NCBI GenBank assembly: GCA_036758145.1
Contig: DAIOXD010000002.1
Span: 1 to 32,001, forward strand
DNA: 32,001 bases
DNA from: Candidatus Limnocylindrales bacterium
GTDB lineage: Bacteria > Chloroflexota > Limnocylindria > Limnocylindrales > CSP1-4
Reading direction: 5' to 3'
Part shown: positions 1 through 24,530 of the stretch, one piece after another
Layout: each line of letters begins with the position of its first letter
Numbering within the stretch: position 1 is the first letter of the stretch
Notes under the pieces: generated by a model
Told to the model about the DNA's origin: nothing
Databases searched by the model: none
The model's input: the letters and a program-made list of their open reading frames with translations, nothing else
Program-made: the position numbers and the translations under genes

Positions 1-363
1 CGTGAGGTCGTCGGCGTAGGCCGCCGCCGTCAGCAGGAGCGCGTCGCCGTCCTCGGCGGGGAACCACAGCTTTGCGGCGACGTTGGCGACCGAGCCCTGG
101 GCGAGGGACGGCCGCCCGGACGGGAGTGGCCACTCGACGTGCGCGAGGAGGCCCGAGACAGGCAGCCAGGCGCCGACGAAGCCCGTCTCCGATTCGACGA
201 TGGCGTCGGGATCGTCGACCTCGACCCCTTCGGCGCCGATGGCGAAGGCGTCGTCGGGCGCGAAGCGCAGGACCGTCACCTCGTCGCCCTGCCAACGCGC
301 GGCGTCCAGCGCGACCGGATCGGCGACGACGCGAAGCCCGAGCAGTGGCTCAAGCGCGCGCAC
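1..363 (-). CDS. SoxG-like small subunit (sarcosine oxidase gamma / GcvT-fold family), first 121 codons only; 3' end lies beyond the window start
   Basis: Absent from the ORF track because it runs off the window. The minus-strand frame is open from 363 to 1. GTG at 363-361 is preceded by GGAGGG (376-371) and overlaps the upstream gene's stop (350-352) by 14 nt. Translation VRALEPLLGLRVVADPVALDAARWQGDEVTVLRFAPDDAFAIGAEG...RPSLAQGSVANVAAKLWF has normal composition. By memory it resembles SoxG N-termini, and its position after a SoxA-like gene fits. Confidence 0.4.
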   Translation of the reverse strand, partial: MRALEPLLGLRVVADPVALDAARWQGDEVTVLRFAPDDAFAIGAEGVEVDDPDAIVESETGFVGAWLPVSGLLAHVEWPLPSGRPSLAQGSVANVAAKLWFPAEDGDALLLTAAAYADDLT

Positions 364-2614
364 GGTGGCCCTCCGGGTCGTAGAACGGCGTCGGGGTCAC
401 CACGGCCTCGCGACCGTCGATCTCGACGCGATCGGGGAACGGCGTCCGCCGCAGCCAGCCGAGCATCAAAGCTTTGCCCAGGAGCGGGGAGGTCCAGCTC
501 CCGGTCACGTTCCCGACGACCTCGCCATCGGACCAGATCGGCGATCCCTCGGTCGGCGCCGGCCCGTCCATCGTGAAGCCGAGCCAGCGGCGCTCATCCG
601 GAGACTTGGCGGTCCGTTCGAGTGAACCCCGACCGATGAACCGCGGCTTCTCCATCCGGACCGCCCAGTCCATCCCGAGCCGGCGCGGGGTCGTGTCGAG
701 CTCGGTGTCCATCCCGACGATGACGTGGCCCTTCTCGAGCCGCAGCCCGAACAGCGCCTGGAGACCGTGCGGCCGGATCCCGAGGTCCTGGCCAAGTCCC
801 AGCAGCGCCCGCCAGAGCTCGACCGAGCGATCGACCGGGTGGTGGAGCTCGAAGGCGGCCTCGCCGGTGAACGACAGGCGCATGACGTGGCAGGGCACGC
901 CCGCGACATCGGCATGGACGTGGCCGAGGAAGCGCGGCGGATCGGCGAGTCCGGCACGGGTCAGGAGGGTCCTGGCGAGCGGCCCGGTGACGTTGATCGC
1001 GGCGAGCGACATCGTCCGATCGAGGACATGGACTCGGAGACCCCAGGTGTCGATCCAGTCGCGCACCCACATCTCCGCGTTCGCCGCGCCGCCCGAGGTG
1101 AAAGAGAGCACGAACCGCGTCTCGGACTCGCGCAGGATCATGCCGTCGTCCATGACGTGGCCGCGCTCGTTGAGCAGGAGCGCATATCGCGAGCGGCCCG
1201 GCTTGATGTCGGCGACGTGGCAGGGATAGAGCCGCTCGAGCAGCTCGACGACATCCGGCCCGGAGACGACGAGCTTGCCGAGCGTCGAGACGTCGCCGAT
1301 CGAGACGCCCTCCCGGACCGCCCAGTACTCGGCGACCGCATCGCCGTAATGCCACGGCCGCCACCAGCCACCGAACCGGTCCATCCTCGCGCCTGCCGCC
1401 AGGTGTTCCTCGTGGAGCGGCGTCCGCCGGAAGGCATCGACATAGCCGTCGGCGGCGGCCTCGGCGAGCGTGATCTGGCGGGACGCTGGCCGGGCCGTGA
1501 ACGGGTCCGGCACCTCGCCGGTCCTGGCGGCGATCCACGAGCGGACTTGGGGCAGGCACGCGCCGCCCTGGCACGTCCCGAGACACGCCTGGCTCGCGCG
1601 CTTGAGCAGCTCCAGCTCGGTGAAGCCTCGATCCCAGGCGTCGGCGAGGTCGGCGACGGTCGTGCCCATACAGCCGCAGACCACGCCCTCGGTCGGCGCC
1701 GGGGGGAGCGGCAGGTCGCCGGCCGCCTCGCCGACGACACGAACGGGCACAGCCCCAGCCATCCGCGCCAGCAGATCCCGCGGCGAACGCCCGAGCCCGA
1801 GGATGATGGTGTCGCCGGGCGTGGTCGTCTCGGCTCCGCTGGCGGGATCGGCGGTCACGACGGCCCGGACCCGGCCGGCGTCATCCCCCTCGAACCGGAC
1901 GAGGCGCCCGTCGACCGACGTGGCCGGCACGCCCGCGGGTGACGTCCCGATCGCCACGGCCTCGCCCAGGTCCACGCCAGCGGCCCCGAGGGCCTCGGCC
2001 GCGCGCGACGTGACGAGCCCGGCGAGCCGGTTGCCCGGACAGACCGGGTGGATCTCGGCCGCCCCGGTCGCGACCACGATCTCGTGGGCGTGGACGTGCA
2101 GCATCCCGGTCGCGGTCCGGACCACCAGGAGGGGCCCGGCGTAGACGGCGACGACCTCCTCGCCCGAGCCAGCGTCGAGGATACGGACGGTCTTCCCGTG
2201 ACCTTCGGCCTCGGCCGCCGCGGCTCGCCCACTCGACCCCCCGCCGACCACGGCGACGTCCACCTCGAGATGGCGCAAGTCGACGACCGGCGCGACGGGC
2301 GGCGCGCCCAGGTCGGACATCGCGACGACGGGCAGCGGCGGCATCAAGTCGGCCGGGTGGCGGACGACCCCGAGGCCCGGACGCGCCGACGTCTGGCAGG
2401 TCCGCACGTAGGCGATGCCGTCGACCTGGGCCAGGCAGTTGCCGCAATCGCCGGCGAGGCACAACGTCCCGCCGCGGCCGGGCACCTCGCCCGCGCGCAG
2501 GATCGCGACCGCCACCGAATCGCCGTGCTCGAAGGGGACCGGCCGCCCGTCGACGACGATCCGGCCGGCGATGGACTCGGCGGCGGGGGAAGCGGCCGCC
2601 TCGACCTCGGTCAC
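350..2614 (-). CDS. SoxA-like (sarcosine oxidase alpha family) Fe-S / NAD(FAD)-binding / GcvT folate-binding protein
   Basis: ORF 350..2674 (-). It has a 2Fe-2S type motif CLAGDCGNCLAQVDGIAYVRTC and a dinucleotide fold VAVVGGGSSGRAAA. It also has a BFD-like Cys cluster CGC...CLGTCQGGAC and a C-terminal aminomethyltransferase (GcvT) domain ending PFYDPEGHRARA. I set the start at GTG 2614-2612, which forms a GTGA overlap with the upstream stop 2611-2613. The ATG at 2674 would overlap the upstream gene by 64 nt. Confidence 0.8.
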   Translation of the reverse strand: MTEVEAAASPAAESIAGRIVVDGRPVPFEHGDSVAVAILRAGEVPGRGGTLCLAGDCGNCLAQVDGIAYVRTCQTSARPGLGVVRHPADLMPPLPVVAMSDLGAPPVAPVVDLRHLEVDVAVVGGGSSGRAAAAEAEGHGKTVRILDAGSGEEVVAVYAGPLLVVRTATGMLHVHAHEIVVATGAAEIHPVCPGNRLAGLVTSRAAEALGAAGVDLGEAVAIGTSPAGVPATSVDGRLVRFEGDDAGRVRAVVTADPASGAETTTPGDTIILGLGRSPRDLLARMAGAVPVRVVGEAAGDLPLPPAPTEGVVCGCMGTTVADLADAWDRGFTELELLKRASQACLGTCQGGACLPQVRSWIAARTGEVPDPFTARPASRQITLAEAAADGYVDAFRRTPLHEEHLAAGARMDRFGGWWRPWHYGDAVAEYWAVREGVSIGDVSTLGKLVVSGPDVVELLERLYPCHVADIKPGRSRYALLLNERGHVMDDGMILRESETRFVLSFTSGGAANAEMWVRDWIDTWGLRVHVLDRTMSLAAINVTGPLARTLLTRAGLADPPRFLGHVHADVAGVPCHVMRLSFTGEAAFELHHPVDRSVELWRALLGLGQDLGIRPHGLQALFGLRLEKGHVIVGMDTELDTTPRRLGMDWAVRMEKPRFIGRGSLERTAKSPDERRWLGFTMDGPAPTEGSPIWSDGEVVGNVTGSWTSPLLGKALMLGWLRRTPFPDRVEIDGREAVVTPTPFYDPEGHRARA

Positions 2615-5079
2615 CCGCGCATCCGGGTGCCCTGCGGGTCGAACAGCGGCTCGGGCTGGAGCCGGGCCGGGCATCGCCGCCCGATGATCTCGATCTCGAA
2701 CCCGCTGCCGCCGGGGCCATCGGGCGTCGCCAACTCCGTCGGCACATAGCCGAGCGCGATGGACTCCTTGACGTGGTGCCCGTACCCGCCCGAGGTAACC
2801 CAGCCGACGACCTCCCCTTCGTGCCAGATCGGCTCGTCACCGATGACGTCGGCCGGGTCGTCGGAGTCAGGTTCGACGACGAAGGCCACCAGCCGGCGCT
2901 TCGGATCGCCGGCCGCGAGTTCGGCCTCGTGGGCGGCCCGCCCGATGAAGTCGTGGTCGAGCTTGAGGTAACGCTTGATCCCGCCTTCGAGCGGCGTGTA
3001 GATCGGTCGGTACTCGCGGAACCACGTCCCGTAGCTCTTTTCGAGCCGGAGCGACATCAGGGCGCGCATCCCGAACAGGCGGAGGCCATGCCGCTCCCCG
3101 GCCGCCACGATCCGGTCGAATAGCTCGCGCTGGTACTGCGGGCTGACCCACAGTTCGTAGCCGAGGTCGCCGGCGTAGTTGATGCGGGCCAGGAGGACGG
3201 GCGTCATCCCGAGGTCGACGCGCCGGAAGGTCATGAACGGGAACGCTTCGGTCGAAAGGTCCAGGTCGGGGGCGACGGCCTGCAGGACCTCCCGCGAACG
3301 TGGTCCGGCCACGGACAGCCCGACCAGGCCCAGCCCCAGCACCTCGAACCGGACGGAGCCGTCGGCCGGCAGGTGGTGGCGGAACCAGCGGGAGTGGTGG
3401 ACCTCGGCCGGCAGCGATCCGAACAGGAAGAACTCGTTCCCCTCCGAGGCTCGCGCGACCGTGAACTCCCCGACGACGCGGCCTGCCTCGTTGAGCATCG
3501 CCGTGAGCGTGATCCGGCCCGGCGCCGGCATGCGGGCGGTCAGCAGCGACGACAGCCATGCTTCCGCGCCCTCACCGGTGACCCGGTACTTGGCATAATT
3601 GGAGATCTCGGTCATGCCGACCCGTTCCCGGACCGCGGCGACCTCGCCCGCGACCTGCTCCCAGGCGTTGGACCGGCGGAAGGTCACGTCCTCCTTCGGC
3701 TCGAGACCCGGCTTCTGGAACCAGAGGGCGTGCTCGAGGCCGAAGGTCGCGCCCCAGACCGCGTTCGCATCCGTCAGTCGGTCGTAGATCGGCGTCGTGA
3801 GGAGCGGGCGGGCATCGGGCAGCTCCTCGTTCGGGAACGTGATCCGGAAGCGCCGCCGGTAGTTCTCCTGGACCTTCGCATTCGTGTAGGCGAGCGTCGC
3901 GTAGTCGCCGTAGCGGGCGACATCCATCGCCCAGATATCCATCCCCGAATCGCCGTGGTCGCCGGCGGTCATCCAGGTCGCGAGGGCGAGACCCACGCCG
4001 CCGCCCTGCGACAGCCCGGCCATCACCCCGCAGGCGACCCAGAAGCCGCGCAGGCCTCGGATCGGCCCGACCAACGGGTTCCCGTCCGGCGAGAACGTGA
4101 ACGGGCCGTTGACGACGCGTCGGATCCCGGTCGTGCCCATCGCCGGGTAGTGGCGGAAGGCGACCTGGAGCTCGGGCGTGATGCGGTCCAGGTCGGGCTT
4201 CAGCAGCTGCGACCCGAAATCCCAGGGCGTCTCGCGCGGCGACCACGGGACGCACGCCTGCTCGTAGGTCCCGAGGAGCATCGCCCCGCCCTCCTGGCGG
4301 ATGTAGATCTCGCCCCCGAAGTCGAGCGCCATCGGCATCTCGTGGCCGGTCGCTGCCACATGCGCGGCGACCTCGGGCATGTCCTGGGTGATGAGGTAGA
4401 TGTGCTCCATGGCGAGGACCGGCAGCTCGATGCCGACCATCCGCCCGACCTCGCGCGCCCAGAGGCCGGCGGCATTCACGACGTGCTCGGCATGGATGAC
4501 GTCCCCGCTCTCGACGCGGACGTCCCACGTCCCGTCCGGGCGGTGCGAGAGGCCGACCACCGGCGTGTTCTGGTGGACCTCGGCTCCTGCCAGTTGGGCA
4601 CTCTTGACGTAGGCGCGCGTCACCCCGGTCGGGTCGACGTGGCCCTCGACCGGGTCGTACAGCGCCCCGACGAAATACTGCGGATCCAGCAGCGGGAAGA
4701 GGTCCTGCGCCTCCTTGGCCGAGATGAGCTCGAGGTCCATCCCGAGATACCGCCCGCGCGCCACCGCCATCCGCAGGAAGTCCATCCGGACCTCCGTGTC
4801 GGCAAGCATCAGCCCGCCCGGCAGGTGGATGGAGCAGTCCTGGCCGCTGATCCGCTCGATCTCCTCGTACAGCTTGATCGTGTACTGCTGGAGCTTCGAG
4901 ACGTTCGGGTCGCCATTGAGCGTGTGCATCCCGCCGGCCGCGTGCCAGGTCGAGCCGGCCGTCAGCTCCCGGCGCTCGAGGAGCATGACGTCGGTCCAGC
5001 CCGCCTTCGTCAGGTGGTAGAGGACGCTGGCGCCCACGACGCCTCCGCCGATGACGACGACCTGGGCCGATGACTTCAT
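2611..5079 (-). CDS. Dimethylglycine oxidase/dehydrogenase-like flavoprotein (DAO-type FAD domain fused to GcvT folate-binding domain), 822 aa
   Basis: ORF 2611..5391 (-). The first 104 codons are Arg/Ser/Pro-rich junk that overlaps the upstream gene. The real start is ATG 5079-5077, preceded by GAGGGGAG. It has an N-terminal Rossmann motif VVVIGGGVVGASVLYHL. The motif GSTWHAAGG matches the covalent-flavin His site of the DMGDH/SARDH/DMGO family. The C-terminal GcvT and GcvT_C regions end LFDPQGTRMRG. Confidence 0.85.
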   Translation of the reverse strand: MKSSAQVVVIGGGVVGASVLYHLTKAGWTDVMLLERRELTAGSTWHAAGGMHTLNGDPNVSKLQQYTIKLYEEIERISGQDCSIHLPGGLMLADTEVRMDFLRMAVARGRYLGMDLELISAKEAQDLFPLLDPQYFVGALYDPVEGHVDPTGVTRAYVKSAQLAGAEVHQNTPVVGLSHRPDGTWDVRVESGDVIHAEHVVNAAGLWAREVGRMVGIELPVLAMEHIYLITQDMPEVAAHVAATGHEMPMALDFGGEIYIRQEGGAMLLGTYEQACVPWSPRETPWDFGSQLLKPDLDRITPELQVAFRHYPAMGTTGIRRVVNGPFTFSPDGNPLVGPIRGLRGFWVACGVMAGLSQGGGVGLALATWMTAGDHGDSGMDIWAMDVARYGDYATLAYTNAKVQENYRRRFRITFPNEELPDARPLLTTPIYDRLTDANAVWGATFGLEHALWFQKPGLEPKEDVTFRRSNAWEQVAGEVAAVRERVGMTEISNYAKYRVTGEGAEAWLSSLLTARMPAPGRITLTAMLNEAGRVVGEFTVARASEGNEFFLFGSLPAEVHHSRWFRHHLPADGSVRFEVLGLGLVGLSVAGPRSREVLQAVAPDLDLSTEAFPFMTFRRVDLGMTPVLLARINYAGDLGYELWVSPQYQRELFDRIVAAGERHGLRLFGMRALMSLRLEKSYGTWFREYRPIYTPLEGGIKRYLKLDHDFIGRAAHEAELAAGDPKRRLVAFVVEPDSDDPADVIGDEPIWHEGEVVGWVTSGGYGHHVKESIALGYVPTELATPDGPGGSGFEIEIIGRRCPARLQPEPLFDPQGTRMRG

Positions 5080-5101
5080 GCAGCTCCCCTCGCTGGTCGG
5101 T

Positions 5102-6667
5102 TCAATAGTCGGTCGGGACGCCGCCCTCGGCCACGCGCCGGGCAACGAACGCCTCGAGCTCCTCGGCGATGGCGGGGTCCATGGGCGGCGGCTCGTACGC
5201 CGCGAGCAGTTCCTTCCAGATCCGGTTGGCCTTCTCGGGGACCTGTGGCGAACCGGCCTCTTCCCAGGTCTCGTAGTTGCGCCAGTCGCTGAGCATCGGC
5301 TTGTGGAAGGCGGTCCGGTAGCGCGATTGCGTGTGTTCCGCCCCGAAGAAGTGGCCGCCCGGGCCGACCTCCCGCATCGCGTCGAAGGCAAGGGTCTCGT
5401 CGTCGACCACGACCGGGTCGAGGAATGCCTCGACCATCCCGAGCAGCTCGGCGTCGAGGATCATCTTCTCGTAGCTCGCGTGGAGCCCGCCCTCCATCCA
5501 GCCGGCGCCGTGCATCAGCAGGTTGACGCCGCCCATGATCGCTCCCCACAGCGAGAAGACCGATTCATAGGCCGCCTGGGCGTCGAGCGCGTTGGCCGCG
5601 CAGACATTGGACGATCGATACGGCACGCCGTATCGCCGCGCTAGCTGGCCACCGATCATCGCGGTCCGCATGTATTCGGGCGTCCCGAACGCCGGCGCGC
5701 CCGACTGCATGTCGACATTCGAGGTGAATCCGCCGTAGATGACCGGCGCGCCTGGGTTCACCGCCTGGGTCAGGACCATCCCGGCCAGCGCCTCGGCATT
5801 CTGCTCGGCCAGGGCGCCGGCCAGGGTCACCGGGGCCATCGCGCCCGCGAGCGTGAACGGCGTGATGCAGACGACCTGGTTGTGCGCCGCGAACTCCATG
5901 ATCCCCTGGAGCATCGGTGCATCGAGCCGCAGCGGCGAGCTCGAGTTGACGACGGTGAAGACCGACGGCTCGCGGTCGATCGTGGCGGCGTCGACGCCGC
6001 GCGCGATCCGGACCATCTCGAGGACGTCGACGTTCCGCTGGCGGCCGAGGCTGTAGCAATGGATCGCCTTGTCCATCAGCGTCAGTGCGTCGAACGTCGC
6101 GTAGAGGTGGCGGACGCCGTGGTGCAGGTCGACGGGCTCGACCGGGTAGCCCGACAGGAAATGGATCGCGTTGAGCGACTGGGCCAGGCGCAGGAGGTTC
6201 TGGTAGTCGACTCGGTTGCCGATCCGCCGGCCGCGGTCCAGGTCTGACACATTCGGCGGGCTGCCGACGGTGCCGAAGGCGACCCAGTCACCACCGAGCT
6301 TGACGTCGTAGTCCGGGTTTCGAGCGTGCAGCGTGAAGCTCGCGGGAGCCGTCTTGATCAGGTCGGTGACCATCGCCGGGTCGAATCGGACGCGCTGCGT
6401 ACCCGGCGCGATCTCCGCGCCCGCGACGCGCAGGACCTCGCGCGCGTCGGCGTCGAGGAAGTCCATCCCGATCTCGGACAGGACCCGCAACGACCCCGTG
6501 TGGATCGACTCCAGCTCGTCGGCCGACAGGATCTCGGTCCTCGGGTAGCGCATCCGCGGCTGGGCCCACGGCCGCTGCATGGGCGCCGCGCTCCGGGCGT
6601 GGCCTTCGCGGCCCCCACCCCGCCGTCGGCGGAGTCCCTCGCCCGCGGCCGTGTCCAGATCCGTCAC
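5102..6667 (-). CDS. Trimethylamine methyltransferase (MttB) family protein, non-pyrrolysine class (paralog 1)
   Basis: ORF 5102..6709 (-) is continuous with no in-frame TAG. MttB-family core segments align clearly with the second paralog at 20925-22472: ITPFTLAGAMAPVT, NPGAPVIYGGF, MQSGAPAFGTPE and GAGWMEGGL. I chose GTG 6667-6665 as the start because GGAGG lies 4 nt upstream. This start also gives an N-terminus (VTDLDTAAGEGLRRRRGGGRE) that parallels paralog 2 (MAVPDLEHPAVRRGRAARQ). Alternative starts are GTG 6709 and ATG 6580. Confidence 0.85.
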   Translation of the reverse strand: MTDLDTAAGEGLRRRRGGGREGHARSAAPMQRPWAQPRMRYPRTEILSADELESIHTGSLRVLSEIGMDFLDADAREVLRVAGAEIAPGTQRVRFDPAMVTDLIKTAPASFTLHARNPDYDVKLGGDWVAFGTVGSPPNVSDLDRGRRIGNRVDYQNLLRLAQSLNAIHFLSGYPVEPVDLHHGVRHLYATFDALTLMDKAIHCYSLGRQRNVDVLEMVRIARGVDAATIDREPSVFTVVNSSSPLRLDAPMLQGIMEFAAHNQVVCITPFTLAGAMAPVTLAGALAEQNAEALAGMVLTQAVNPGAPVIYGGFTSNVDMQSGAPAFGTPEYMRTAMIGGQLARRYGVPYRSSNVCAANALDAQAAYESVFSLWGAIMGGVNLLMHGAGWMEGGLHASYEKMILDAELLGMVEAFLDPVVVDDETLAFDAMREVGPGGHFFGAEHTQSRYRTAFHKPMLSDWRNYETWEEAGSPQVPEKANRIWKELLAAYEPPPMDPAIAEELEAFVARRVAEGGVPTDY

Positions 6668-6766: not shown

Positions 6767-8470
6767 CTAGTCCTCGCGCCCGAGCCCCCGGACGTGGTTG
6801 ATGAGGGTCAGGATCAGGTAGACGAGCAGGACGAGCAGTCCCACGTGGACCCAGGCGTAGGGCATCCAGTCCGGCAGGGTCCGGCGTGTGTCATCCGGGA
6901 AGACGAGGACGAGGTAGAGGAGCGCCCCGACGAGCAGGACCGACAACCCGAGCGTCACCGCGCGACGCCGCGCGGTCCGCATCCGCCGGCGCAGGCCGAA
7001 CAGCGATGCCTCCGCCTCGATGATCACCGGCTGCTGGGTCTCGAGGAACTCCATGAATTCGAACGCGCGCTGCAACCGCCCGCTGCCCGCATAAAGCCGG
7101 TCGAGCGTCCGCCGCGGGTCGAGCCATGACACGCCCTGTTGTCGCGTCAGGCGCCGCACGAAGCGGCGCACGTTCTCCGGCAGGTCGTACTCGACCGCGA
7201 GCTGGTGGCGGAGCGTTCCGAGCGTCACCAGCATCTTGAGGTAGGCGACGATGCTCGACGACATCGCCAGCTGCTGATCGCGGATGGTCTCGAGGATGTC
7301 GACGGCGAGCTTCGAATACGGGTTCTCGGTGTGGCGAGCCGGGCCGGGCGCCCCCATCGTCACGCGGGAGCGGTCGGCGACCGTGTCGTACAGGAACGCC
7401 TGGTGGACCCGGATGAGCTGCCAGCGGGCGGCGGCGGTGTCGGTCGCCGGTCCCGGGGCGAGCCAGCGCATCAGCTCTCGAACGGCCGCCTCGACCTCGC
7501 CACGGAACAGGAGCCAGCTATAGCGGGTCAGCGAGTCCCGGACCCGGTCGGGGAGCTGCCCGACGATCCCGAAGTCCACGTATCCGATGGCGTCGTCCTC
7601 GAGCACGAACAGGTTGGCCGGGTGCAGGTCGGCATGGAAATAGCCGAACACGAACACCTGGTTGAGCATGTTCCAGTCGAGGTGGCGCACGATGCGGTCG
7701 AGGTCGTGGCCCTGGGCCGCCAACGTCTCGAGGTAGGCGAGGTTCCCCTCGCGCCGGGCGATCATGACCTCGATGAGCGGGATGCCATCGATGAATTCGG
7801 TGGTGAGGACCCGCGATGTCGTGTAGTCCCGGTAGACACGGGCGATCCGCTCGAGCTTGTCGCCCCGGGAGTGCTGGTAGAGCAGGACGGCCTGGCGCGC
7901 TTCCACGAGATAGTCGAGCTCGTCGGCCGTCCAACGCGCGAACTCGTCGATCACCTCGCGGCTCCTCGTCGCCCCGAACAGGTGGGTCCAGTCGAGGACC
8001 CAGGTCGTCGCGTACATCAGGTCGATGTCGGCCTGGAGGGTTGCGCGGATCCCCGGCCGCTGGACCTTGACCGCGACCGGCTCACCGCTGTGCAGGACCG
8101 CGCGGTGGACCTGGCCGATCGACGCGGCGGCGAAGGAGGCGTGCTCGAACGAGGCGAAGACGGTCTCCGGCTCGTCGCCCAGCTCCTCGCCGATGATCGC
8201 CCGGACCTCCGAGTACGAGAACGGGGCGACCTGGTTGAGGAGCTTGAAGAGCTCGTCGCAATAGGCCGCCGGGAGCAGGTCGAAGCGCAGCGCGAGCATC
8301 TGCCCCAACTTGATCCAGGCGCCGCCGAGTCGCTCGAATGCGACGCGTACCCGGACGGCGCCGCTGCGGCGATCGGACCCGGGAGCGTGGAGCGCGGGCA
8401 GGATGAAGAACGTGACGAAGACGGTGAATACGTGCCAGACCCGGCGTGGATGCCTGAGCAGCGTTCTCAC
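6767..8470 (-). CDS. ABC1/UbiB (AarF) atypical kinase family protein with C-terminal transmembrane helices
   Basis: ORF 6767..8470 (-), GTG start. Motifs seen: KLGQMLALRFDLLP, AAASIGQVHRA, VAVKVQRPG, HADLHPANLFV and YVDFGIVG. The hydrophobic C-terminus is LSVLLVGALLYLVLVF...VHVGLLVLLVYLILTLI. Confidence 0.85.
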   Translation of the reverse strand: MRTLLRHPRRVWHVFTVFVTFFILPALHAPGSDRRSGAVRVRVAFERLGGAWIKLGQMLALRFDLLPAAYCDELFKLLNQVAPFSYSEVRAIIGEELGDEPETVFASFEHASFAAASIGQVHRAVLHSGEPVAVKVQRPGIRATLQADIDLMYATTWVLDWTHLFGATRSREVIDEFARWTADELDYLVEARQAVLLYQHSRGDKLERIARVYRDYTTSRVLTTEFIDGIPLIEVMIARREGNLAYLETLAAQGHDLDRIVRHLDWNMLNQVFVFGYFHADLHPANLFVLEDDAIGYVDFGIVGQLPDRVRDSLTRYSWLLFRGEVEAAVRELMRWLAPGPATDTAAARWQLIRVHQAFLYDTVADRSRVTMGAPGPARHTENPYSKLAVDILETIRDQQLAMSSSIVAYLKMLVTLGTLRHQLAVEYDLPENVRRFVRRLTRQQGVSWLDPRRTLDRLYAGSGRLQRAFEFMEFLETQQPVIIEAEASLFGLRRRMRTARRRAVTLGLSVLLVGALLYLVLVFPDDTRRTLPDWMPYAWVHVGLLVLLVYLILTLINHVRGLGRED

Positions 8471-8527
8471 GCGGTGCGGCCGGGCTCAGCGGTCCCTGGC
8501 CGAGCCGCTGGCGCCGAGCCGAACGGT

Positions 8528-8965
8528 TCAGGAATCCTCGTCATCGAGGGAGACGCGTCGCCGTCGGTTCGGGAGCGAGGTCTCCTCCTCCCACTCGCGA
8601 CCGGCGCGGACGAGGTCCCCGAACGTCCGGCGCGACCATCGATAGAGCAGGGTCATCGCGCCTTCGGCGGCAAGTTGCGTCTCGCGGCCGTAGCGGACGC
8701 CCATCCGGACGCCGTCCTGGATGCGGCTCTCGCCCTCGTCGAAGGCGTCCGATAGTCGTCGCTGCCGCAATCGGCGCGCGTAGTCGTCGCGCTCTTCGGT
8801 GGTCGGCCCGTTCAACCAGGCCTGCCGCCGCCGCTTCTCACGCTCGACCCACGCGTCGATCTCGGCCTGGGTCGGCTCGAGCGCGACGGGGTCGTCGCTC
8901 ATGGCGTCCATCGTGGCGTCCGCCGACGCCTTGTCCGCCGACGCCTTGCCCGCCGGATCAGTCAT
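8528..8965 (-). CDS. Hypothetical protein, 145 aa, charged and probably helical
   Basis: ORF 8528..9109 (-), trimmed to ATG 8965-8963, which is preceded by AGAGGTGG at 5-nt spacing. The composition is protein-like (MTDPAGKASADKASAD...EIDAWVEREKRRRQAWL...). I recognised no family. Confidence 0.5.
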   Translation of the reverse strand: MTDPAGKASADKASADATMDAMSDDPVALEPTQAEIDAWVEREKRRRQAWLNGPTTEERDDYARRLRQRRLSDAFDEGESRIQDGVRMGVRYGRETQLAAEGAMTLLYRWSRRTFGDLVRAGREWEEETSLPNRRRRVSLDDEDS

Positions 8966-9095
8966 GTCAACCACCTCTGGGCCCACTTGCAGACGGTGCG
9001 ACAAACCTGGGACGGGGAGTGTACGCCCCGCGACCGCGCCCGGGACATAGCCGGCGCGTCCGCGGGCCCCGGCCGGCCCGCGTGCGGGGCGCCGC

Positions 9096-9252
9096 TGACC
9101 CCGGGTCAACGATTCGGGCCCAAAGGTCCCCGGCGAGACCGCAAGACTCCGGTGTGGCGACCCAGGGTCAACAAGCCGCGAACTTCGGTGGGCCGATCCA
9201 CCCGTGGTATACCAACCGTCCTCGTGCCAAAAGTGTTGATCGCGGGGTCAAC
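9096..9252. promoter_or_regulatory. Three related palindromic sites, consensus TGACCC-N-GGGTCA, in one intergenic region
   Basis: Site 1 is tgaccccgggtca at 9096-9108, with 6-1-6 arms. Site 2 is gacccagggtc at 9159-9169, with 5-1-5 arms. Site 3 is a degenerate copy, gttgatcgcggggtcaac, at 9235-9252. All three share GGGTCAAC (9103-9110, 9165-9172, 9245-9252). GTCAAC also abuts the start codon at 8966-8971. Confidence 0.3.
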
Positions 9253-9283: not shown

Positions 9284-10804
9284 TCAGTCGCCCGACAGGT
9301 CGAACCAGGTCGTCTTGAGCTGGGTGTAGCCGTCGAGGGCGTGGAGGCCCTTGTCGCGCCCGAAACCGGACTGCTTGTAGCCACCGAAGGGCACGGTGAT
9401 GTCGGCCGTGTCGAAGGTGTTGACCCAGACCACCCCGGCCCGGATCCGGCGCGAGAGCCGGTGCGCGCGATTGACATCGCGGGTCCACAGCCCGGCGGCC
9501 AGACCGTAGGGCGAATCGTTGGCGATGGCCACCGCCTCTTCCTCGTCCTCGAACTCGGTGACGGTCAGGACAGGGCCGAAGATCTCCTCGCGCGCGACCC
9601 TCATGGAGTTGGCCACGCCGTCAAGGATCGTCGGCTCGATGTAGTAGCCGCCACTCTCCCCGCGGACCTGCTCGCCGCCGGCGACGACCCGGGCGCCTTC
9701 CTCGCGACCGAGATCGACGTAGCCGAGGACCTTCGCCAGCTGGCGGTCGTCGACGATCGACCCGAGCCGGGTCCTGGGATCGAGCGGCTCGCCTGGAGCA
9801 AGCTTCCGACCGAGCGCCGCGACGCGCTCGACAAGCTCCTCGCGGACCGAGCGATGGACGACGAGGCGCGAGCCCGCGTTGCAGGTCTGCCCGCTGTTGT
9901 AGAAGATCCCCCAGCCGATCGCGGAAGCGGCCGCCTCGAGGTCGCCGACGTCCGCCAGCACGACCTGCGGGCTCTTGCCACCGAGCTCGAGCGAGATGGC
10001 CTTGACGTCGGACTCCCCGAGCGCGCGCAGGAGTGACTTGCCGACCTCCGTCGAGCCCGTGAAGGCGATCTTGTCGACGTCCGGGTGCCGGGCGAGCGCG
10101 TCGCCGAGGACCGAGCCCGGGCCGGTCACCACGTTGAGGACACCGTCGGGGAGTCCCGCCTCCGCGGCAAGCTCGGCGAGGCGGAGCGCCGTCAGTGGCG
10201 ACTGACTCGCGGGCTTGAGCACGACCGAGTTACCGGTCGCTAGCGCGGGCCCGATCTTCCAGGCCGTGATGATCATCGGGTAGTTCCAGGGCACGATCGC
10301 GGCGACCACCCCGATCGGCTCGCGGGTCACCAGGGAGAGGGCGTCGGGCCCGGTCGGCCCGACCTCGCCGTACGCCTTGTCGATCGTCTCGGCGTACCAC
10401 TGGAGGGTCGTGGCGGCACTCGGGATGTCGACTCGGAGCGTGTCGCGGATCGGCTTGCCGACATCGAGCGACTCGAGCAGCGCCAGCTCGTCGGTGTGCT
10501 CGCGGACGAGCTCCGCGAGCCGCAGCAGGACGGCCTTGCGTGCCATCGGCGGCTGGTCGCTCCAGCGGCGATCATCGAACGAGCGACGGGCGGCCGCGAC
10601 GGCGCGATCGACGTCCTCGGGGCCGCCCTCGGCGACGGCCGCGATCCGGGAGCCGTCGCGCCCGGCGATGTCGTCGAAGGTCGCCCCCGAGGCCGCCGGC
10701 ACGAAGCGGCCGTCGACGAACAGCTCGGTCCGGGGCGCGATCGACGCGGCGCGAGCGATCCAGTCGGCCGCGGTCGGCCCCGCGGGTTTCGTCTCAGCGC
10801 TCAC
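9284..10804 (-). CDS. NAD(P)-dependent aldehyde dehydrogenase, 506 aa
   Basis: ORF 9284..11626 (-) is a read-through artefact. The real start is GTG 10804-10802, which forms a GTGA overlap with the upstream stop 10801-10803 and has GGAGGT 7 nt upstream. ALDH motifs seen: VPWNYP, FTGSTEVGK, LELGGKSP (catalytic Glu), GQTCNAGSR (catalytic Cys) and EEIFGPV. Confidence 0.9.
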   Translation of the reverse strand: MSAETKPAGPTAADWIARAASIAPRTELFVDGRFVPAASGATFDDIAGRDGSRIAAVAEGGPEDVDRAVAAARRSFDDRRWSDQPPMARKAVLLRLAELVREHTDELALLESLDVGKPIRDTLRVDIPSAATTLQWYAETIDKAYGEVGPTGPDALSLVTREPIGVVAAIVPWNYPMIITAWKIGPALATGNSVVLKPASQSPLTALRLAELAAEAGLPDGVLNVVTGPGSVLGDALARHPDVDKIAFTGSTEVGKSLLRALGESDVKAISLELGGKSPQVVLADVGDLEAAASAIGWGIFYNSGQTCNAGSRLVVHRSVREELVERVAALGRKLAPGEPLDPRTRLGSIVDDRQLAKVLGYVDLGREEGARVVAGGEQVRGESGGYYIEPTILDGVANSMRVAREEIFGPVLTVTEFEDEEEAVAIANDSPYGLAAGLWTRDVNRAHRLSRRIRAGVVWVNTFDTADITVPFGGYKQSGFGRDKGLHALDGYTQLKTTWFDLSGD

Positions 10805-11910
10805 GAGGCGTACCTCCGGATCGCCGCTTCGTCGAGGACGATCCCGAGACCGGCCGCGGCGGGCACCCGCAGGATCCCGTCCGGTCCCGGTCGGATCGGC
10901 TCGGCGAGCATGAAGTCGCGCCGTTCCGGGGTCCAGCCCGGCGGGTCGTACGGGAACTCGATGAACGGTCCACCACCGACGCCGGCCGCGACGTGCAGGT
11001 TCGCGAGCAGCCCGATCCCGTTGGTCCAGGTGTGAGGGGTGTACCAGCGGTTGCGCGCCAGGGCGAGCTCCGCGATCATGCGCCCGCGCAGCATCCCGGC
11101 GGCGAGGACGGCGTCGGGCTGATGGACGTCGAACGCGTCGGCGTCGACCGCCGCCACGAGTTCGCCGAACGTCCGGGTCATCTCGCCGCCGGCGATCCGG
11201 ACCCCGGGCACCGAGGCTCGGAGCGCGGCCAGACCGCGCAAGTCCGTCCCCGCGAGCGGCTCCTCGACCCACAGGACGTCGTACTCGGCCAGCTGGACGG
11301 CGATCGCCCGGGCCGCCACCGGGTCCAGCGAGCCCGACACATCGCCTGCCATCCGCCAGCCCTGGTTGAGATCGACCATGATCGCCATCGAATCGCCGAC
11401 GGCATGGCGCGTCGCCGCGACCGCCGCGACGCCTTCCTCCAGCCGGCGCGGATCGACCCGGATCTTGAGCGCCCCGAACCCTTCCTCGCGCAGCCGGAGC
11501 GCGGCCTCGGCCCGGGCCGCCGGCGCGAGGAGCATCCCGCACGAGGCATAGGCCGGGATCCCCTCGCTGGCCCCGCCGAACAGCGTGGCGACCGGAAGGC
11601 CCGCGACCTTGCCGATGATGTCCCACAGCGCGACCTCGAGCGGCCAGTAGCGACCGGCGTGGAAGTCGATCGTCTCGAGGATGCGGACCTGGCGAGCGAT
11701 CGCGAGCGGGTCGGTGCCGATGAACAGGTGCTCGAAGGCTTCGAAGCCGTCCATCGTGTCGCCCGACCCGACGCCCACGACCCCTTCATCGGTCTCGACC
11801 CGCACCACGGTCGCCGCGAACGACCGTCGCGGGATCGGATCCCAGGCGGCCGCGAAGGGCGGATCGAGGGGCATGACCAGGCGATCGAGTCGGATCCCCG
11901 TGATGCGCAT
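10801..11910 (-). CDS. Enolase-superfamily enzyme (mandelate racemase / muconate lactonizing enzyme family), 369 aa
   Basis: ORF 10801..12051 (-), trimmed to ATG 11910-11908 (MRITGIRLDRLVMPLDPPF). The capping domain is followed by barrel motifs LKIRVD, MVDLNQGW, LWVEEP and IAGGE, which match the acidic metal-ligand pattern of the superfamily. Confidence 0.8.
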   Translation of the reverse strand: MRITGIRLDRLVMPLDPPFAAAWDPIPRRSFAATVVRVETDEGVVGVGSGDTMDGFEAFEHLFIGTDPLAIARQVRILETIDFHAGRYWPLEVALWDIIGKVAGLPVATLFGGASEGIPAYASCGMLLAPAARAEAALRLREEGFGALKIRVDPRRLEEGVAAVAATRHAVGDSMAIMVDLNQGWRMAGDVSGSLDPVAARAIAVQLAEYDVLWVEEPLAGTDLRGLAALRASVPGVRIAGGEMTRTFGELVAAVDADAFDVHQPDAVLAAGMLRGRMIAELALARNRWYTPHTWTNGIGLLANLHVAAGVGGGPFIEFPYDPPGWTPERRDFMLAEPIRPGPDGILRVPAAAGLGIVLDEAAIRRYAS

Positions 11911-12096: not shown

Positions 12097-13809
12097 ATGG
12101 ACTATCCCCAGCTGGACAAGGTCCGCGGTTCGACAACGCCACTGCAGCTCGACACGGTCGAGGCGTTCGTCCGCGGCAAGTTGAGTCGTCGCGAATTCAT
12201 CGGGCGCGGCCTGGTGGTCGGGCTCTCGATGGCGTCGATCAGCGCCGTCATCGCCGCGTGCGGCGGCGGCACCTCAAGCACCGCGCCGAGCACCGGCGGC
12301 GGCGGCAGCACGGCTCCGACTTCAGGCGCCAGCACCCCGCCCGCCTCGGCGACCGCCGGAGGCACGATCCGGATCGCGCTCCAGCGCCCGGTCAAGGTCG
12401 ACCCCATCGCGATGCAGGACCTCGGCGGCTACGGCATCACCGCTCAGTCGTTCGAGTTCCTGTGCACGCTCGACAAGAACGGCAGCGACATCGCCCCTGG
12501 CCTCGCTCTCAAGTGGACGCCCAATGCCGACGGCAGCGTCTGGGTCTTCGACCTCCGTCAGGGCGTCATGTGGCAGGACGGCACCCCGTTCAGCTCGGCC
12601 GACGTGGTGGCCACGATGGAACGCCTCGTGGCGGCCGGCAACTCCGGCCTCAAGGGCGTCATCGACAAGGGCTCGGCGGTCGCGACCGATGCGAACACGG
12701 TCACCTTCAACCTCGTGAGCGCCAACGGCAACTTCCCATACCTCGTCTCGGTCTTCACCGCCCAGGCGCTCATCACCCCGGCCAACTACGCCGCCGGGAC
12801 GACGTTCGACGCGAAGCCGAACGGAACGGGCGCCTGGAAGCTGACCAGCTACGACGTCACACAGGGTGCCAAGTTCGCGCGGAACGACGCCTGGTGGGGC
12901 GGCAAGACCCCGCTCGACACGACGGAGTTCATCTTCTTCGATCAGACGTCGGACATGGTCACCGCCTATCAGGGCGGGCAGGTCGATGCGATCGTGCAGT
13001 TCGACGTCCTCTCGGGCAAGAGCCTGCTGGACGATGCGAACACGACGGTCATCGCGACCAAGGCCGCGCTCCACCGGCAGATCTGGATGCGCTGCGACAA
13101 GGGCCAGTTCGCGAAGAAGGAAGTCCGCCAGGCGCTGGCCTACACCTTCGACCGGCCGGCCCTGATCCAGCAGCTCTTCCAGGGACGGGCCGATCTCGGC
13201 AATGATCACGTCATCGCCCCGATCTACCCGTACTTCGACTCGTCGATCCCGCAGCGGGTGCAGGACATCGAGAAGGCCAAGTCGCTCCTGTCCACGGCCG
13301 GCGTGACCAACCTGTCGGCCACGCTCCACGCGGGCCAGCTCCTCGAGATCCCCGATCTCGCCGTGCTGCTCCAGAGCAACGCCGCGAAGGCCGGGATCAC
13401 CCTGACCCCGGCGGTCGAGAGCCTGACGACGTTCTACGGCGCGCAGTGGTGCCCCGACAAGCCGGCCGATCCCCCGTGCTCCGGCTCGGCCGAGCTCGGC
13501 ATCGTCGACTACGGCCACCGCGCGACCCCGGACGTCTACCTCAACGCGGCCATCAAGACCAAGGGCGTCTGGAACGCGTCGCAGTACTCGTCGCCCGAAT
13601 TCGATGCCGCCTTCACCGAGTTCCAGAAGGCGGTCGGTGTCGACGCCCAGAAGGCGGCCTGCACCAAGATCGAGACGATCATGAACGAGGACGTCCCGAT
13701 CGGCCTCCCGTACTTCTACAACTACCTCGCCGGCAGCGCCAAGGCGTACACCGGGATCTACTCGAGCGCGCTTGGCCAGATGTTCTTCTCCGCGGCTTCC
13801 AAGGCCTGA
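12097..13809 (+). CDS. ABC transporter substrate-binding protein, family 5 (peptide/nickel/opine type), Tat-signal lipoprotein
   Basis: ORF 10540..13809 (+), trimmed to ATG 12097, with GGAGGAG at 12081-12087. It has a twin-arginine motif and lipobox, LSRREFIGRGLVVGLSMASISAVIAACGGG, followed by a Ser/Thr/Pro/Gly linker. The mature domain is typical of SBP_bac_5 (LALKWTPNADGSVWVFDLRQGVMWQDGTPFSSADV). An alternative in-frame TTG start lies at 12181. Confidence 0.85.
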   Translation: MDYPQLDKVRGSTTPLQLDTVEAFVRGKLSRREFIGRGLVVGLSMASISAVIAACGGGTSSTAPSTGGGGSTAPTSGASTPPASATAGGTIRIALQRPVKVDPIAMQDLGGYGITAQSFEFLCTLDKNGSDIAPGLALKWTPNADGSVWVFDLRQGVMWQDGTPFSSADVVATMERLVAAGNSGLKGVIDKGSAVATDANTVTFNLVSANGNFPYLVSVFTAQALITPANYAAGTTFDAKPNGTGAWKLTSYDVTQGAKFARNDAWWGGKTPLDTTEFIFFDQTSDMVTAYQGGQVDAIVQFDVLSGKSLLDDANTTVIATKAALHRQIWMRCDKGQFAKKEVRQALAYTFDRPALIQQLFQGRADLGNDHVIAPIYPYFDSSIPQRVQDIEKAKSLLSTAGVTNLSATLHAGQLLEIPDLAVLLQSNAAKAGITLTPAVESLTTFYGAQWCPDKPADPPCSGSAELGIVDYGHRATPDVYLNAAIKTKGVWNASQYSSPEFDAAFTEFQKAVGVDAQKAACTKIETIMNEDVPIGLPYFYNYLAGSAKAYTGIYSSALGQMFFSAASKA

Positions 13810-13827
13810 CATCGCGGCGCGTGGGGT

Positions 13828-13866
13828 CGGCGGTTCGTCCCGTCGGCCCCGCGGCGCGAACCGTCG
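13828..13866 (+). other. Imperfect stem-loop between the SBP and permease genes
   Basis: cggcggttcg (13828-13837) pairs with cgaaccgtcg (13857-13866), giving 10 bp including one G-U pair and a 19-nt loop. No U-tract follows. The permease SD GGAGGG starts at 13871. Confidence 0.25.
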
Positions 13867-13887
13867 CCCAGGAGGGTGAAGTAGGCG

Positions 13888-14841
13888 ATGGCACGCTTCA
13901 TCCTGCGCCGGCTGCTCCTCTCGCTCGTCACGCTGTGGCTGCTGGCGACGATCGTCTTCATCATCTCCAACGTCCTGCCCAGCGATGTCGGGCGGACGAT
14001 CCTCGGGCCGTTCGCGCCCCAGGAAAGCGTCGACGCGGTGAACGAGCGGCTGGGGACCAACCGGCCGATCCTCATCCGCTACGTCGACTCGTTGCGCCAG
14101 ATCGTCACCCTCGACTTCGGCGATTCGTACGTCACCCAGCAGCCGGTCATGCCACAACTGGCCGGGGCCATCGGGCGCTCCGCAAAGCTCGCCGGCCTCG
14201 CGCTCATCATCACCATCCCGATCAGCATCATCGCCGGGCTGTACGCCGCTCGTCGACGTGACCGGAAGGTCGACCGCGCGATCGTCCTGCTGGGGGTGAC
14301 GTCCTCGTCGATCCCGGAGTTCGTCACCGGGACGATCCTGGTCGTCGTCGTGGGCGTCGCCCTGCGCTGGCTGCCAGTCCTCGCCACCCCGCCCGAGTCA
14401 GCCGACATCCCGACCACGATCCGCTACCTGCTGATGCCGGCCATCGCGATGGCCATCGTCTACTTCGGCTACATCGCCCGGATGACCCGCTCCGGCACGA
14501 TCGAGGTCCTCCAGTCGGACTACATCCGGACGGCGACGATGAAGGGCCTGACCACACGGGCGACGATGCTTCACCATGTCCTGCGCAACGCGCTCGTGCC
14601 GACGGTGGCCGTCATCGCCGTCCAGATCGGCTATCTCTTCGGCGGGATCATCGCCGTCGAGAAGATCTTCAACTACAACGGGATGGGCCAGACGATGCTG
14701 CGGGCCGCCCAGCAAAAGGACATCCCGATGCTCACCGCGGGCGCCATCGTCATCGGCATCGTGTACATGGTGGCGACCTTCATCGCAGACATGACGATGG
14801 CCTGGATGAACCCGCGGATCCGGCTGGACACCGATCGCTGA
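13888..14841 (+). CDS. ABC transporter permease (DppB/OppB-like)
   Basis: ORF 13888..14841 (+), with GGAGGGTG upstream. The N-terminus MARFILRRLLLSLVTLWLLATIVFII is typical. It has multiple TM segments and the conserved loop DYIRTATMKGL. Confidence 0.9.
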   Translation: MARFILRRLLLSLVTLWLLATIVFIISNVLPSDVGRTILGPFAPQESVDAVNERLGTNRPILIRYVDSLRQIVTLDFGDSYVTQQPVMPQLAGAIGRSAKLAGLALIITIPISIIAGLYAARRRDRKVDRAIVLLGVTSSSIPEFVTGTILVVVVGVALRWLPVLATPPESADIPTTIRYLLMPAIAMAIVYFGYIARMTRSGTIEVLQSDYIRTATMKGLTTRATMLHHVLRNALVPTVAVIAVQIGYLFGGIIAVEKIFNYNGMGQTMLRAAQQKDIPMLTAGAIVIGIVYMVATFIADMTMAWMNPRIRLDTDR

Positions 14842-20697: not shown

Positions 20698-20787
20698 CTC
20701 GGGCGTGGCGCCTCGGGGCCTGGCAGTCCCGACTGGACCATCCAAGGTCCTCCAAGGCGGGCCCGATCACACGCTCGCCACGGCTCC

Positions 20788-20802
20788 GTGCCTGATAGGC
20801 AC
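20788..20802. promoter_or_regulatory. Perfect 6-3-6 palindrome GTGCCTgatAGGCAC in the leader of the flavoprotein gene
   Basis: Read directly from the sequence. It lies about 90 nt upstream of ATG 20697 in the 227-nt gap after the MttB paralog 2 stop. Confidence 0.3.
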
Positions 20803-20924
20803 CCAACAGAGCGGAGTGGCATTCGTGGCCGCCTCTCGAGCCGCCAGTGGCGCCTACCAGTCCCCGCCACGACGCCGCCGAGGGCCACGATGGAACCGGC
20901 CCGCATCGCCCAGCCCACGCGGAC

Positions 20925-22472: not shown

Positions 22473-22536
22473 CTGATCTCCTCGGGTTCGCGCGACCTGG
22501 AGGCGCCGTGCCAGGGACATGGTACGGCGGCGCGAA

Positions 22537-24528: not shown

Positions 24529-24530
24529 GA

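Follow-up and report, generated by a model that had tools for sequence, protein, structure and literature searches.

The DNA analysed here is a window of 32 kb (positions 1 to 32,001 of contig DAIOXD010000002.1, G+C ~70%) from Candidatus Limnocylindrales bacterium. Its class, the Limnocylindria (formerly Ellin6529/SL56-type Chloroflexota), comprises abundant, uncultured bacteria of soils and lakes. We found that a conserved Limnocylindria operon, mttB-dmgdh-soxA-soxG-soxB-soxD(-Fe-ADH), reaches into the window with its promoter-proximal two thirds, at positions 1-6667. It encodes a methyltransferase of the MttB superfamily (MttB1), a flavoenzyme of the dimethylglycine dehydrogenase (DMGDH) type and a heterotetrameric sarcosine oxidase (Sox). 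The anatomy of this operon is near certain: its gene order, its translational coupling, its domain content, the soxB and soxD genes of relatives and the conservation across genomes were observed directly. We consider it reasonably probable that three enzymes of the operon, acting in series, strip the methyl groups from a trimethylammonium carboxylate (probably glycine betaine) and so yield glycine. A conserved stepwise operon of this kind would give Limnocylindria a concrete source of carbon, nitrogen and one-carbon (C1) units from an osmolyte-type amine.

Four coupled genes at the edge of the window

Four co-directional open reading frames (ORFs) occupy positions 1-6667, all on the minus strand; lengths are given in amino acids (aa) and nucleotides (nt):

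5102..6667, minus strand: MttB1, non-pyrrolysine MttB-superfamily methyltransferase, 521 aa from the GTG at 6667 (PF06253)
5080..5101, minus strand: intergenic spacer of 22 nt with the Shine-Dalgarno-like GAGGGGAG (direct sequence reading)
2611..5079, minus strand: DMGDH-type flavoenzyme, 822 aa, DAO + FAO_M + GCV_T + GCV_T_C (Pfam)
350..2614, minus strand: short SoxA-like alpha subunit, 754 aa (Pfam, NCBIfam)
1..363, minus strand: putative SoxG-like mini gamma subunit, 121 of 125 codons inside the window (position, predicted fold)

An earlier note, made from the letters of this DNA, had described four tightly coupled genes, and every junction falls at the nucleotide it gave. MttB1 ends with a TGA at 5102-5104 and the DMGDH-type gene starts with an ATG at 5079. 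The TGA of the latter (2611-2613) overlaps the GTG start of the SoxA-like gene (2612-2614) in a GTGA at 2611-2614, and the SoxA-like TGA (350-352) lies inside the SoxG-like gene, which starts with a GTG at 361-363, so that the two share 14 nt (350-363). The MttB1 ORF is open back to 6709, and the GTG at 6667, preceded by GGAGG, is a sensible start. As alignment with full-length homologues indicates, the window edge cuts the SoxG-like gene 4 codons short of its stop. The note's two separate GcvT modules were likewise recovered, with GCV_T and GCV_T_C domains in both the 822-aa and the 754-aa proteins. A scan for promoters and terminators returned no signals above chance level.

The gene order is conserved and continues into soxB and soxD

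Homologues of the SoxA-like protein number in the thousands, chiefly in Chloroflexota metagenome bins. On the contigs of homologues with 88% and 77% identity, the order reads MttB, DAO/GcvT protein, SoxA-like protein, a small ORF (125-138 aa), a DAO protein (402-407 aa), SoxD (80-81 aa) and Fe-ADH. A scan of one genome per species yielded 80 loci with a SoxA-like gene, all from Limnocylindria/Chloroflexota except two contigs. These two (L040 and L050) are labelled "Patescibacteria group bacterium" and "Verrucomicrobiia bacterium"; their SoxA-like proteins are 73-74% identical, with the same synteny. Because the other 78 loci are all from Chloroflexota, the two labels probably reflect mis-binning.

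With the proteins of the window and of the related locus L001 as probes, and with the loci holding enough DNA at a given position as the denominator, the neighbours were counted as follows:

MttB before the DAO/GcvT gene: 48/51 loci
DAO/GcvT (DMGDH-type) gene before SoxA: 56/60 loci
SoxG-like gene after SoxA: 76/78 loci
SoxB after the SoxG-like gene: 65/65 loci
SoxD after SoxB: 62/62 loci
Fe-ADH after SoxD: 51/58 loci

The mttB-dmgdh-sox order was found again in 48-65 independent species-level genomes, an arrangement shared far beyond chance. Conservation of gene order, which the earlier note had put forward as a check, holds across the related Limnocylindria loci.

That note had also remarked on the lack of a stand-alone beta or delta gene. 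Within the 32-kb window this is correct, as no homologue of soxB, soxD or Fe-ADH was detected anywhere in it; in relatives, both genes follow directly past the point where the window ends. Their absence is explained by the window edge, which falls inside soxG. In relatives the start of SoxB overlaps the SoxG-like gene by 4 nt, and in the closest relative found (L084; SoxA 96%, ABC1 99% and DNA 88% identical) the first 21 codons of SoxB directly follow the SoxG-like gene with the same 4-nt overlap. By comparison with these relatives, soxB and soxD presumably lie just past position 1 in the source genome.

The two subunits are described from relatives. The DAO protein is SoxB-like, with TIGR01373 by far its best family (398 bits in L001; cutoff 529) and a match of 333 bits to the Corynebacterium beta subunit (PDB 1VRQ_B) across its full length. 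The 80-aa SoxD matches PF04267 at 70 bits (cutoff 27) and, aligned to 2GAG_D, keeps the CxxC...H...C metal-ligand pattern. All four sarcosine oxidase subunit genes thus stand together in relatives, L084 included. The oxidase reads as a four-subunit enzyme encoded in the order soxA-G-B-D, with the DMGDH-type enzyme acting in a step of its own.

The operon is interrupted in a number of relatives, between mttB and dmgdh in L014, L024, L034 and L039, and between dmgdh and soxA in L045, L057, L063, L070 and L082. On inspection of their sequences, the inserted ORFs look like PIN-domain proteins (VapC-like, ~137-152 aa), a 413-aa amidohydrolase, an MFS transporter and lipoprotein-like proteins. Such unrelated genes at the mttB/dmgdh or dmgdh/soxA junctions argue against an obligatory complex of the DMGDH-type, SoxA-like and SoxG-like proteins. 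The same inspection, made without a family search, revealed no corrinoid protein among the insertions.

The 822-aa protein resembles dimethylglycine dehydrogenase over its full length

The earlier note had read the STWHAAGG of the 822-aa protein as a covalent-flavin motif. Alignment agrees, placing it on the STWHAAG motif of human and rat DMGDH, which carries the histidine that binds flavin adenine dinucleotide (FAD) covalently. Over its full length the protein scores 568 bits against human DMGDH (5L46), 566 bits against rat DMGDH (4P9S) and 314 bits against Arthrobacter dimethylglycine oxidase (DMGO; 1PJ5). The four-domain architecture and the covalent-FAD histidine motif are common to all of these enzymes, and by score the protein sides with the dehydrogenases (568 bits) more than with the oxidase from bacteria (314 bits). 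An electron acceptor, for instance ETF, would therefore probably be needed; no ETF gene lies nearby. Among curated equivalog models none matched, and a lookup of the exact product returned nothing on record. Its similarity to 5L46 suggests a DMGDH-type enzyme. In their solved structures, DMGDH and DMGO are self-sufficient enzymes, and the 822-aa protein is a complete member of this family.

The sarcosine oxidase has a short iron-sulfur-type alpha subunit and a putative mini gamma subunit

Pfam assigns to the 754-aa SoxA-like protein a Fer2_4 domain, a weak Pyr_redox_2 domain, GCV_T (229 bits) and GCV_T_C (42.7 bits), with Fer2_BFD and SO_alpha_A3 below threshold. The SoxA model TIGR01372 matches at 271 bits (cutoff 1164) and only over model positions 525-995, its C-terminal half. 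With 754 aa, the protein agrees with the alpha-like protein of about 750 aa in the earlier note. The closest solved alpha subunits are 2GAG_A (194 bits) and 1VRQ_A (186 bits), and the N-terminal half aligns weakly to 2GAG_A.

Across 12 homologues, eight cysteines are invariant: C52, C57, C60 and C73 in Fer2_4, and C313, C315, C348 and C353 in a BFD-like CxC...CxxxxC motif. The classical alpha subunit 2GAG_A has no cysteine at the aligned positions. Since the two motifs sit 261 aa apart in the SoxA-like protein and ~450 aa apart in longer relatives, the ~190 missing residues fall in the dinucleotide-binding region. To place this variant, we ran a full HMMER search of 1.84 billion representatives and counted cysteine motifs in 51 diverse alpha-like proteins with a length of 700 aa or more. 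Both motifs occur in 26 of them (754-989 aa), the BFD-like motif only in five and neither in 20, the last being the classical type. With 26 of 51 representatives carrying both motifs, the Fe-S-type alpha subunits form a large branch, among whose shortest members is the 754-aa protein. The representatives counted belong to the set P0241-P0387. No paper on an Fe-S heterotetrameric sarcosine oxidase turned up in a literature search, and we know of no Fe-S-type Sox alpha subunit that has been studied biochemically.

The SoxG-like protein matched nothing in Pfam and NCBIfam (both at E up to 1) or, as a 28-sequence profile, in the PDB. We modelled its full-length, 98% identical homologue P0121 with AlphaFold2 from 36 homologues (pLDDT 81.6, pTM 0.74) and compared the model with 350,542 PDB chains using Foldseek. 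The best two matches are the TSOX gamma chains 2GAG_C and 1VRQ_C (prob 1.00, TMq 0.64, E 0.016-0.018), which belong to what we take to be the only two solved heterotetrameric sarcosine oxidases; the next are GcvT-fold domains of DMGDH and T-protein. The "SoxG-like" label of the earlier note finds no match at the level of sequence; it stands by position (76/78 after SoxA) and by predicted fold. From this fold and the fixed place after soxA, we assign the protein with moderate confidence as a shortened gamma subunit of 125 aa.

Like the classical soxBDAG enzymes (Corynebacterium sp. U-96, 1VRQ/1X31; Stenotrophomonas maltophilia, 2GAG), the Limnocylindria enzyme has four subunits: a SoxB-like beta subunit matching over its full length (333 bits), a delta subunit (49 bits) with the metal-ligand pattern, an alpha subunit whose C-terminal half (A3 + GcvT) scores 180-194 bits, and a putative gamma subunit whose predicted fold has the classical chains as its top PDB match. 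Unlike them, it is encoded in the order A-G-B-D in all related loci, as opposed to B-D-A-G. Its alpha subunit is ~210 aa shorter (754 versus ~965 aa), with ~190 aa missing between the Fer2_4 and BFD-like modules, and keeps two [2Fe-2S]-type motifs, absent from the classical alpha subunit, with eight invariant cysteines. Its putative gamma subunit has 125 aa instead of 190-195 aa and is unrecognisable by sequence. Fer2_4 and BFD-like modules combined with a DAO-type beta subunit also occur in HcnABC, in archaeal proline dehydrogenase complexes and in the D-hydroxyproline dehydrogenase LhpBEF. These enzymes are not known to have a module of the GcvT type, which binds tetrahydrofolate (THF), or a delta subunit, and the Sox enzyme described here has both.

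The Fe-S motifs of the alpha subunit raise the question of whether the enzyme may use an acceptor other than O2. As a tentative extension, which we think rather unlikely to hold in full, the Sox enzyme could represent a branch of the heterotetrameric family with a two-[2Fe-2S] alpha subunit that has lost ~190 aa of its dinucleotide-binding region and a 125-aa mini gamma subunit, working as a dehydrogenase of sarcosine or other N-methyl amino acids whose electrons pass via the Fe-S centres to a non-O2 acceptor, and MttB1 could represent a new substrate class of the MttB superfamily in aerobic soil Chloroflexota. The alpha subunits that retain Fe-S motifs are a tractable question of enzymology.

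MttB1 and the proposed demethylation route

The MttB1 sequence matches the whole of PF06253 (model positions 1-500, 670 bits), and its ORF contains no internal stop codon. Against TIGR02369, the pyrrolysine-type trimethylamine (TMA) methyltransferase, it scores 324 bits, below the cutoff of 525. These results confirm the non-pyrrolysine MttB protein that the earlier note had recognised. In the glycine betaine site of MtgB, Y97 and F356 make cation-pi contacts and R312 and H348 bind the carboxylate, and all four residues are required for activity (PMC13080624). We compared MttB1 and 49 family members from related loci at these positions: the equivalents of R312 and H348 are kept in MttB1 and in 49/49 family members.

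In the route that we propose, MttB1 would remove one methyl group from its substrate, a trimethylammonium carboxylate that is most probably glycine betaine, and pass the methyl to a Co(I) corrinoid protein, from which a second methyltransferase would move it to THF; the genes for the corrinoid protein and for this second methyltransferase would lie elsewhere in the genome. The DMGDH-type enzyme, with its covalent FAD, would then oxidise dimethylglycine to sarcosine and hand the C1 unit to THF through its own GcvT domain. Finally, the separate four-subunit SoxABDG enzyme, an oxidase or dehydrogenase, would convert sarcosine to glycine via the GcvT domain of its alpha subunit. Here we infer the substrates, the dependence on a corrinoid and the electron acceptors. 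Glycine betaine is the most likely entry substrate because the similarities of the DMGDH-type protein and of SoxB point to dimethylglycine and sarcosine. The suggestion of one enzyme per methyl group, made in the earlier note, is supported in that three enzymes fit the path from a trimethyl substrate to a free amino acid, and it remains the best functional reading.

Alternative explanations

A number of observations weigh against this route. MttB1 is only 38% identical to MtgB of D. hafniense (9YCE/2QNE), with 40% identity to 4YYC and 39% to MttB2, a paralogue further along the window. In its family both aromatic residues of the MtgB site are missing: at Y97 there is G (38), A (9) or S (2), and at F356 a G in 49/49 members. 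An acid-binding pair kept together with an aromatic pair lost is the pattern reported for MttB members that use other quaternary amines, MtcB, MtpB, MthB and MtyB (PMC13080624). With this combination of residues, MttB1 is a candidate quaternary-amine methyltransferase whose substrate cannot be read from its sequence. In the window, and in relatives within ~10 kb, we detected neither a corrinoid-protein gene nor a pterin-binding methyltransferase gene. This search covered the loci themselves (~10 kb around the SoxA-like gene) with a scan for the DxHxxG...SxL...GG motif of B12-binding proteins and with precomputed Pfam calls; across the window and 84 loci, the motif scan gave only four off-frame chance matches. 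For the source genome, soxB and soxD are placed by comparison with relatives, the window itself containing neither. The matches of Fe-ADH and of an aldehyde dehydrogenase upstream lie under all curated cutoffs, and the transporter at 12100-17878 is of the family-5 peptide/opine/nickel type, not of the betaine type (OpuAC).

MttB2, too, weighs against this assignment, as it may be the true glycine betaine enzyme. It is encoded at 20925-22586 on the minus strand (region 18646-24561) and is flanked on both sides by Fe-S flavoproteins of ~680-700 aa of the OYE/FadH type, which match histamine dehydrogenase, trimethylamine dehydrogenase and 2,4-dienoyl-CoA reductase in the PDB. The family of TMADH, histamine dehydrogenase and FadH includes tertiary-amine demethylases. 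MttB2 is 54.5% identical to 4YYC and keeps a Tyr at the position of MtgB Y97, and its best annotated homologue (58%, on a plasmid of Azoarcus KH32C) lies beside betA, betB, a choline binding protein, folD and ETF-QO; the retained Tyr and the betA, betB, choline binding protein and folD neighbours are what suggest such a role. The window may therefore hold two parallel lines of quaternary-amine demethylation.

These observations feed the strongest competing explanation, which we judge somewhat unlikely: MttB1 would act on another acidic quaternary amine (beta-alanine betaine, proline or hydroxyproline betaine, carnitine or gamma-butyrobetaine), the N-methyl groups that remain would fall to the DMGDH-like and Sox-like enzymes, and MttB2 with its two flavoproteins would take glycine betaine. 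Besides the active-site pattern of MttB1 and the properties of MttB2, it draws on the best MttB1 homologue (58%, Mesorhizobium), whose neighbours are Ldh-family, 2OG-oxygenase and Rieske proteins with no sox or dmgdh gene, and on the enolase-superfamily (MR_MLE) and aldehyde dehydrogenase genes conserved upstream. Against it, a trimethyl substrate is what three demethylating enzymes fit, the DMGDH-type protein is similar to bona fide DMGDH from end to end, and an authentic TSOX beta subunit is the closest match of SoxB. The MR_MLE protein, moreover, matches no named betaine epimerase among the 60 PDB matches listed, and is 27% identical to the corresponding neighbour in S. meliloti.

It is improbable that the adjacency is merely positional, with MttB1 serving an unrelated methyl transfer (for example, methionine-linked C1 metabolism) while sharing a transcript with an ordinary dimethylglycine/sarcosine unit. 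The lack of a corrinoid partner nearby would agree with this, as would the insertions between mttB and dmgdh in many relatives and a region upstream of mttB that is rearranged even in L084 (AsnB, IclR). Yet mttB precedes dmgdh in 48/51 loci, the pairing recurs in distant Alphaproteobacteria, and in the window the spacer is only 22 nt long and contains a ribosome-binding site.

The earlier note had instead proposed that the 822-aa DAO+GcvT fusion replaces the beta and delta subunits and, together with the SoxA-like and SoxG-like proteins, makes up a sarcosine oxidase of a new kind, and had named SoxB and SoxD genes just beyond position 1 as the observation that would speak against it. This is highly improbable: the window alone is without soxB and soxD, and the alpha and gamma subunits are atypically short, but the window ends 4 codons ahead of the soxG stop, the two genes are found in every relative that could be examined (65/65 and 62/62, the SoxB start of L084 included), PIN-domain or amidohydrolase genes separate dmgdh from soxA in several relatives, and DMGDH and DMGO are self-sufficient in their solved structures.

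Relation to known glycine betaine demethylation systems

Aerobic bacteria demethylate glycine betaine via an MtgB-type protein, the corrinoid protein MtgC and the THF methyltransferase MtgD (Mausz et al. 2025, PMC12478193). The mtgB, mtgC and mtgD genes of Ruegeria pomeroyi are scattered, and in many marine bacteria genes for dimethylglycine and sarcosine demethylation lie near the mtg genes (PMC12478193). The Limnocylindria operon shares with this system a non-pyrrolysine PF06253 methyltransferase, an aerobic heterotroph lineage and the linkage to DMGDH-type and Sox genes, and, as in R. pomeroyi, its mtgB-type gene is not beside a corrinoid-protein gene. It differs in its host (Chloroflexota, class Limnocylindria) and in having all steps after the methyltransferase in one co-directional operon. 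MttB1 also stands in a clade separate from MtgB, 4YYC and MttB2 (~38-40% identity), without the Y97/F356 pair, and none of MtgC, MtgD, RamA or metF2 was seen within reach of the Limnocylindria loci.

Two alphaproteobacterial plasmids provide the nearest parallels in gene content. On pW43C of Parasedimentitalea marina, soxBDAG/LysR stands on one side of an MttB1-like gene (53%) and, on the other, a gene for an 807-aa FAD oxidoreductase with 43% identity to the 822-aa enzyme. On pSymB of Sinorhizobium meliloti, the neighbours of an MttB1-like gene (50%) include a glycine betaine ABC binding protein as well as a FAD oxidoreductase of 806 aa. Both loci therefore resemble the Limnocylindria operon in pairing an MttB1-like gene (50-53%), which has a LysR regulator gene beside it, with a DMGDH-like gene of 806-807 aa, and in pW43C soxBDAG is directly adjacent. 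Unlike the Limnocylindria operon, their genes are divergent and LysR-regulated, the alpha subunit is a canonical one of 966 aa, and a gene of the Xaa-Pro peptidase family is present. This Xaa-Pro peptidase (M24) gene adjoins the MttB1-like gene in both loci (L086, 13488-14714; L087, 14565-15869). The M24 family includes creatinase, which produces sarcosine.

The earlier note had not known this gene combination as a characterised unit. The combination is not without precedent: the colocation of MtgB-type genes with the later demethylation genes (PMC12478193) and the pW43C and pSymB loci indicate a recurrent module that has already been noted, not a new unit. Taken together, the operon is for the most part an ordinary one for amine demethylation in soil Chloroflexota, apart from some unusual variants of its subunits; the pathway proposed for it is plausible, and recent literature had largely anticipated it. 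The short Fe-S-type alpha subunit with its mini gamma subunit, the distinct MttB clade and the occurrence of the route in abundant uncultured soil Chloroflexota remain distinctive. In the literature, we found Limnocylindria only as frequent carriers of annotated mttB/mtgB genes. If the proposed route is true, the cobalamin-dependent MtgB route reaches from marine Proteobacteria to soil Chloroflexota, implying a demand for cobalamin.

Flanking genes

Two conserved neighbours lie upstream of the operon:

9284..10780, minus strand: aldehyde dehydrogenase (PF00171, 579 bits)
10801..11910, minus strand: enolase-superfamily protein, MR_MLE (PF13378, PF02746; start at MRITG)

The aldehyde dehydrogenase gene is found upstream of MttB1 in most relatives. 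Its protein scores 618 bits against PuuC and 528 bits against BADH (TIGR01804, cutoff 669), both below cutoff; it may be a betaine-aldehyde dehydrogenase, a role that we regard as uncertain. The best match of Fe-ADH is the GbsB-type choline dehydrogenase model (253 bits, cutoff 550). The two enzymes might feed choline into the pathway, a weak suggestion; with all matches below curated cutoffs, neither could be assigned as a choline or betaine-aldehyde enzyme.

For the MR_MLE protein, the best PDB matches, at ~100 bits, are 4GGB/4HPN ("Putative uncharacterized protein"), the galactonate dehydratase 5OLC and unnamed MR/MLE entries. An assignment as a (hydroxy)proline betaine epimerase, which would have pointed to proline betaine as substrate, was rejected on these matches; no entry named as a betaine epimerase is among the 60 PDB matches listed. 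The S. meliloti protein to which it is 27% identical is encoded beside the MttB1-like gene of that species.

Divergently from MR_MLE, the family-5 ABC transporter (12100-17878, plus strand) comprises a binding protein, two permeases and a fused double ATPase of 746 aa; it was not seen at the same position in L002 and L003. Several ORFs of 500-900 aa run antisense over real genes (3373-5073, 7139-8755 and 22519-25269, all on the plus strand, among others). These very long antisense ORFs are an expected artefact of 70% G+C and are not genes.

Directly upstream of MttB1 lies an ABC1/UbiB-type atypical kinase (6767-8470, minus strand, 567 aa) with a C-terminal hydrophobic tail. It precedes MttB1 in a subset of relatives, and L084 has an asparagine synthase (AsnB) and an IclR gene between the kinase and mttB. 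Between this kinase and the aldehyde dehydrogenase, a small ORF (8528-9109, minus strand) without a Pfam or NCBIfam match is conserved at the same position in 12 related loci, with 58-71% identity over ~130-150 aa.

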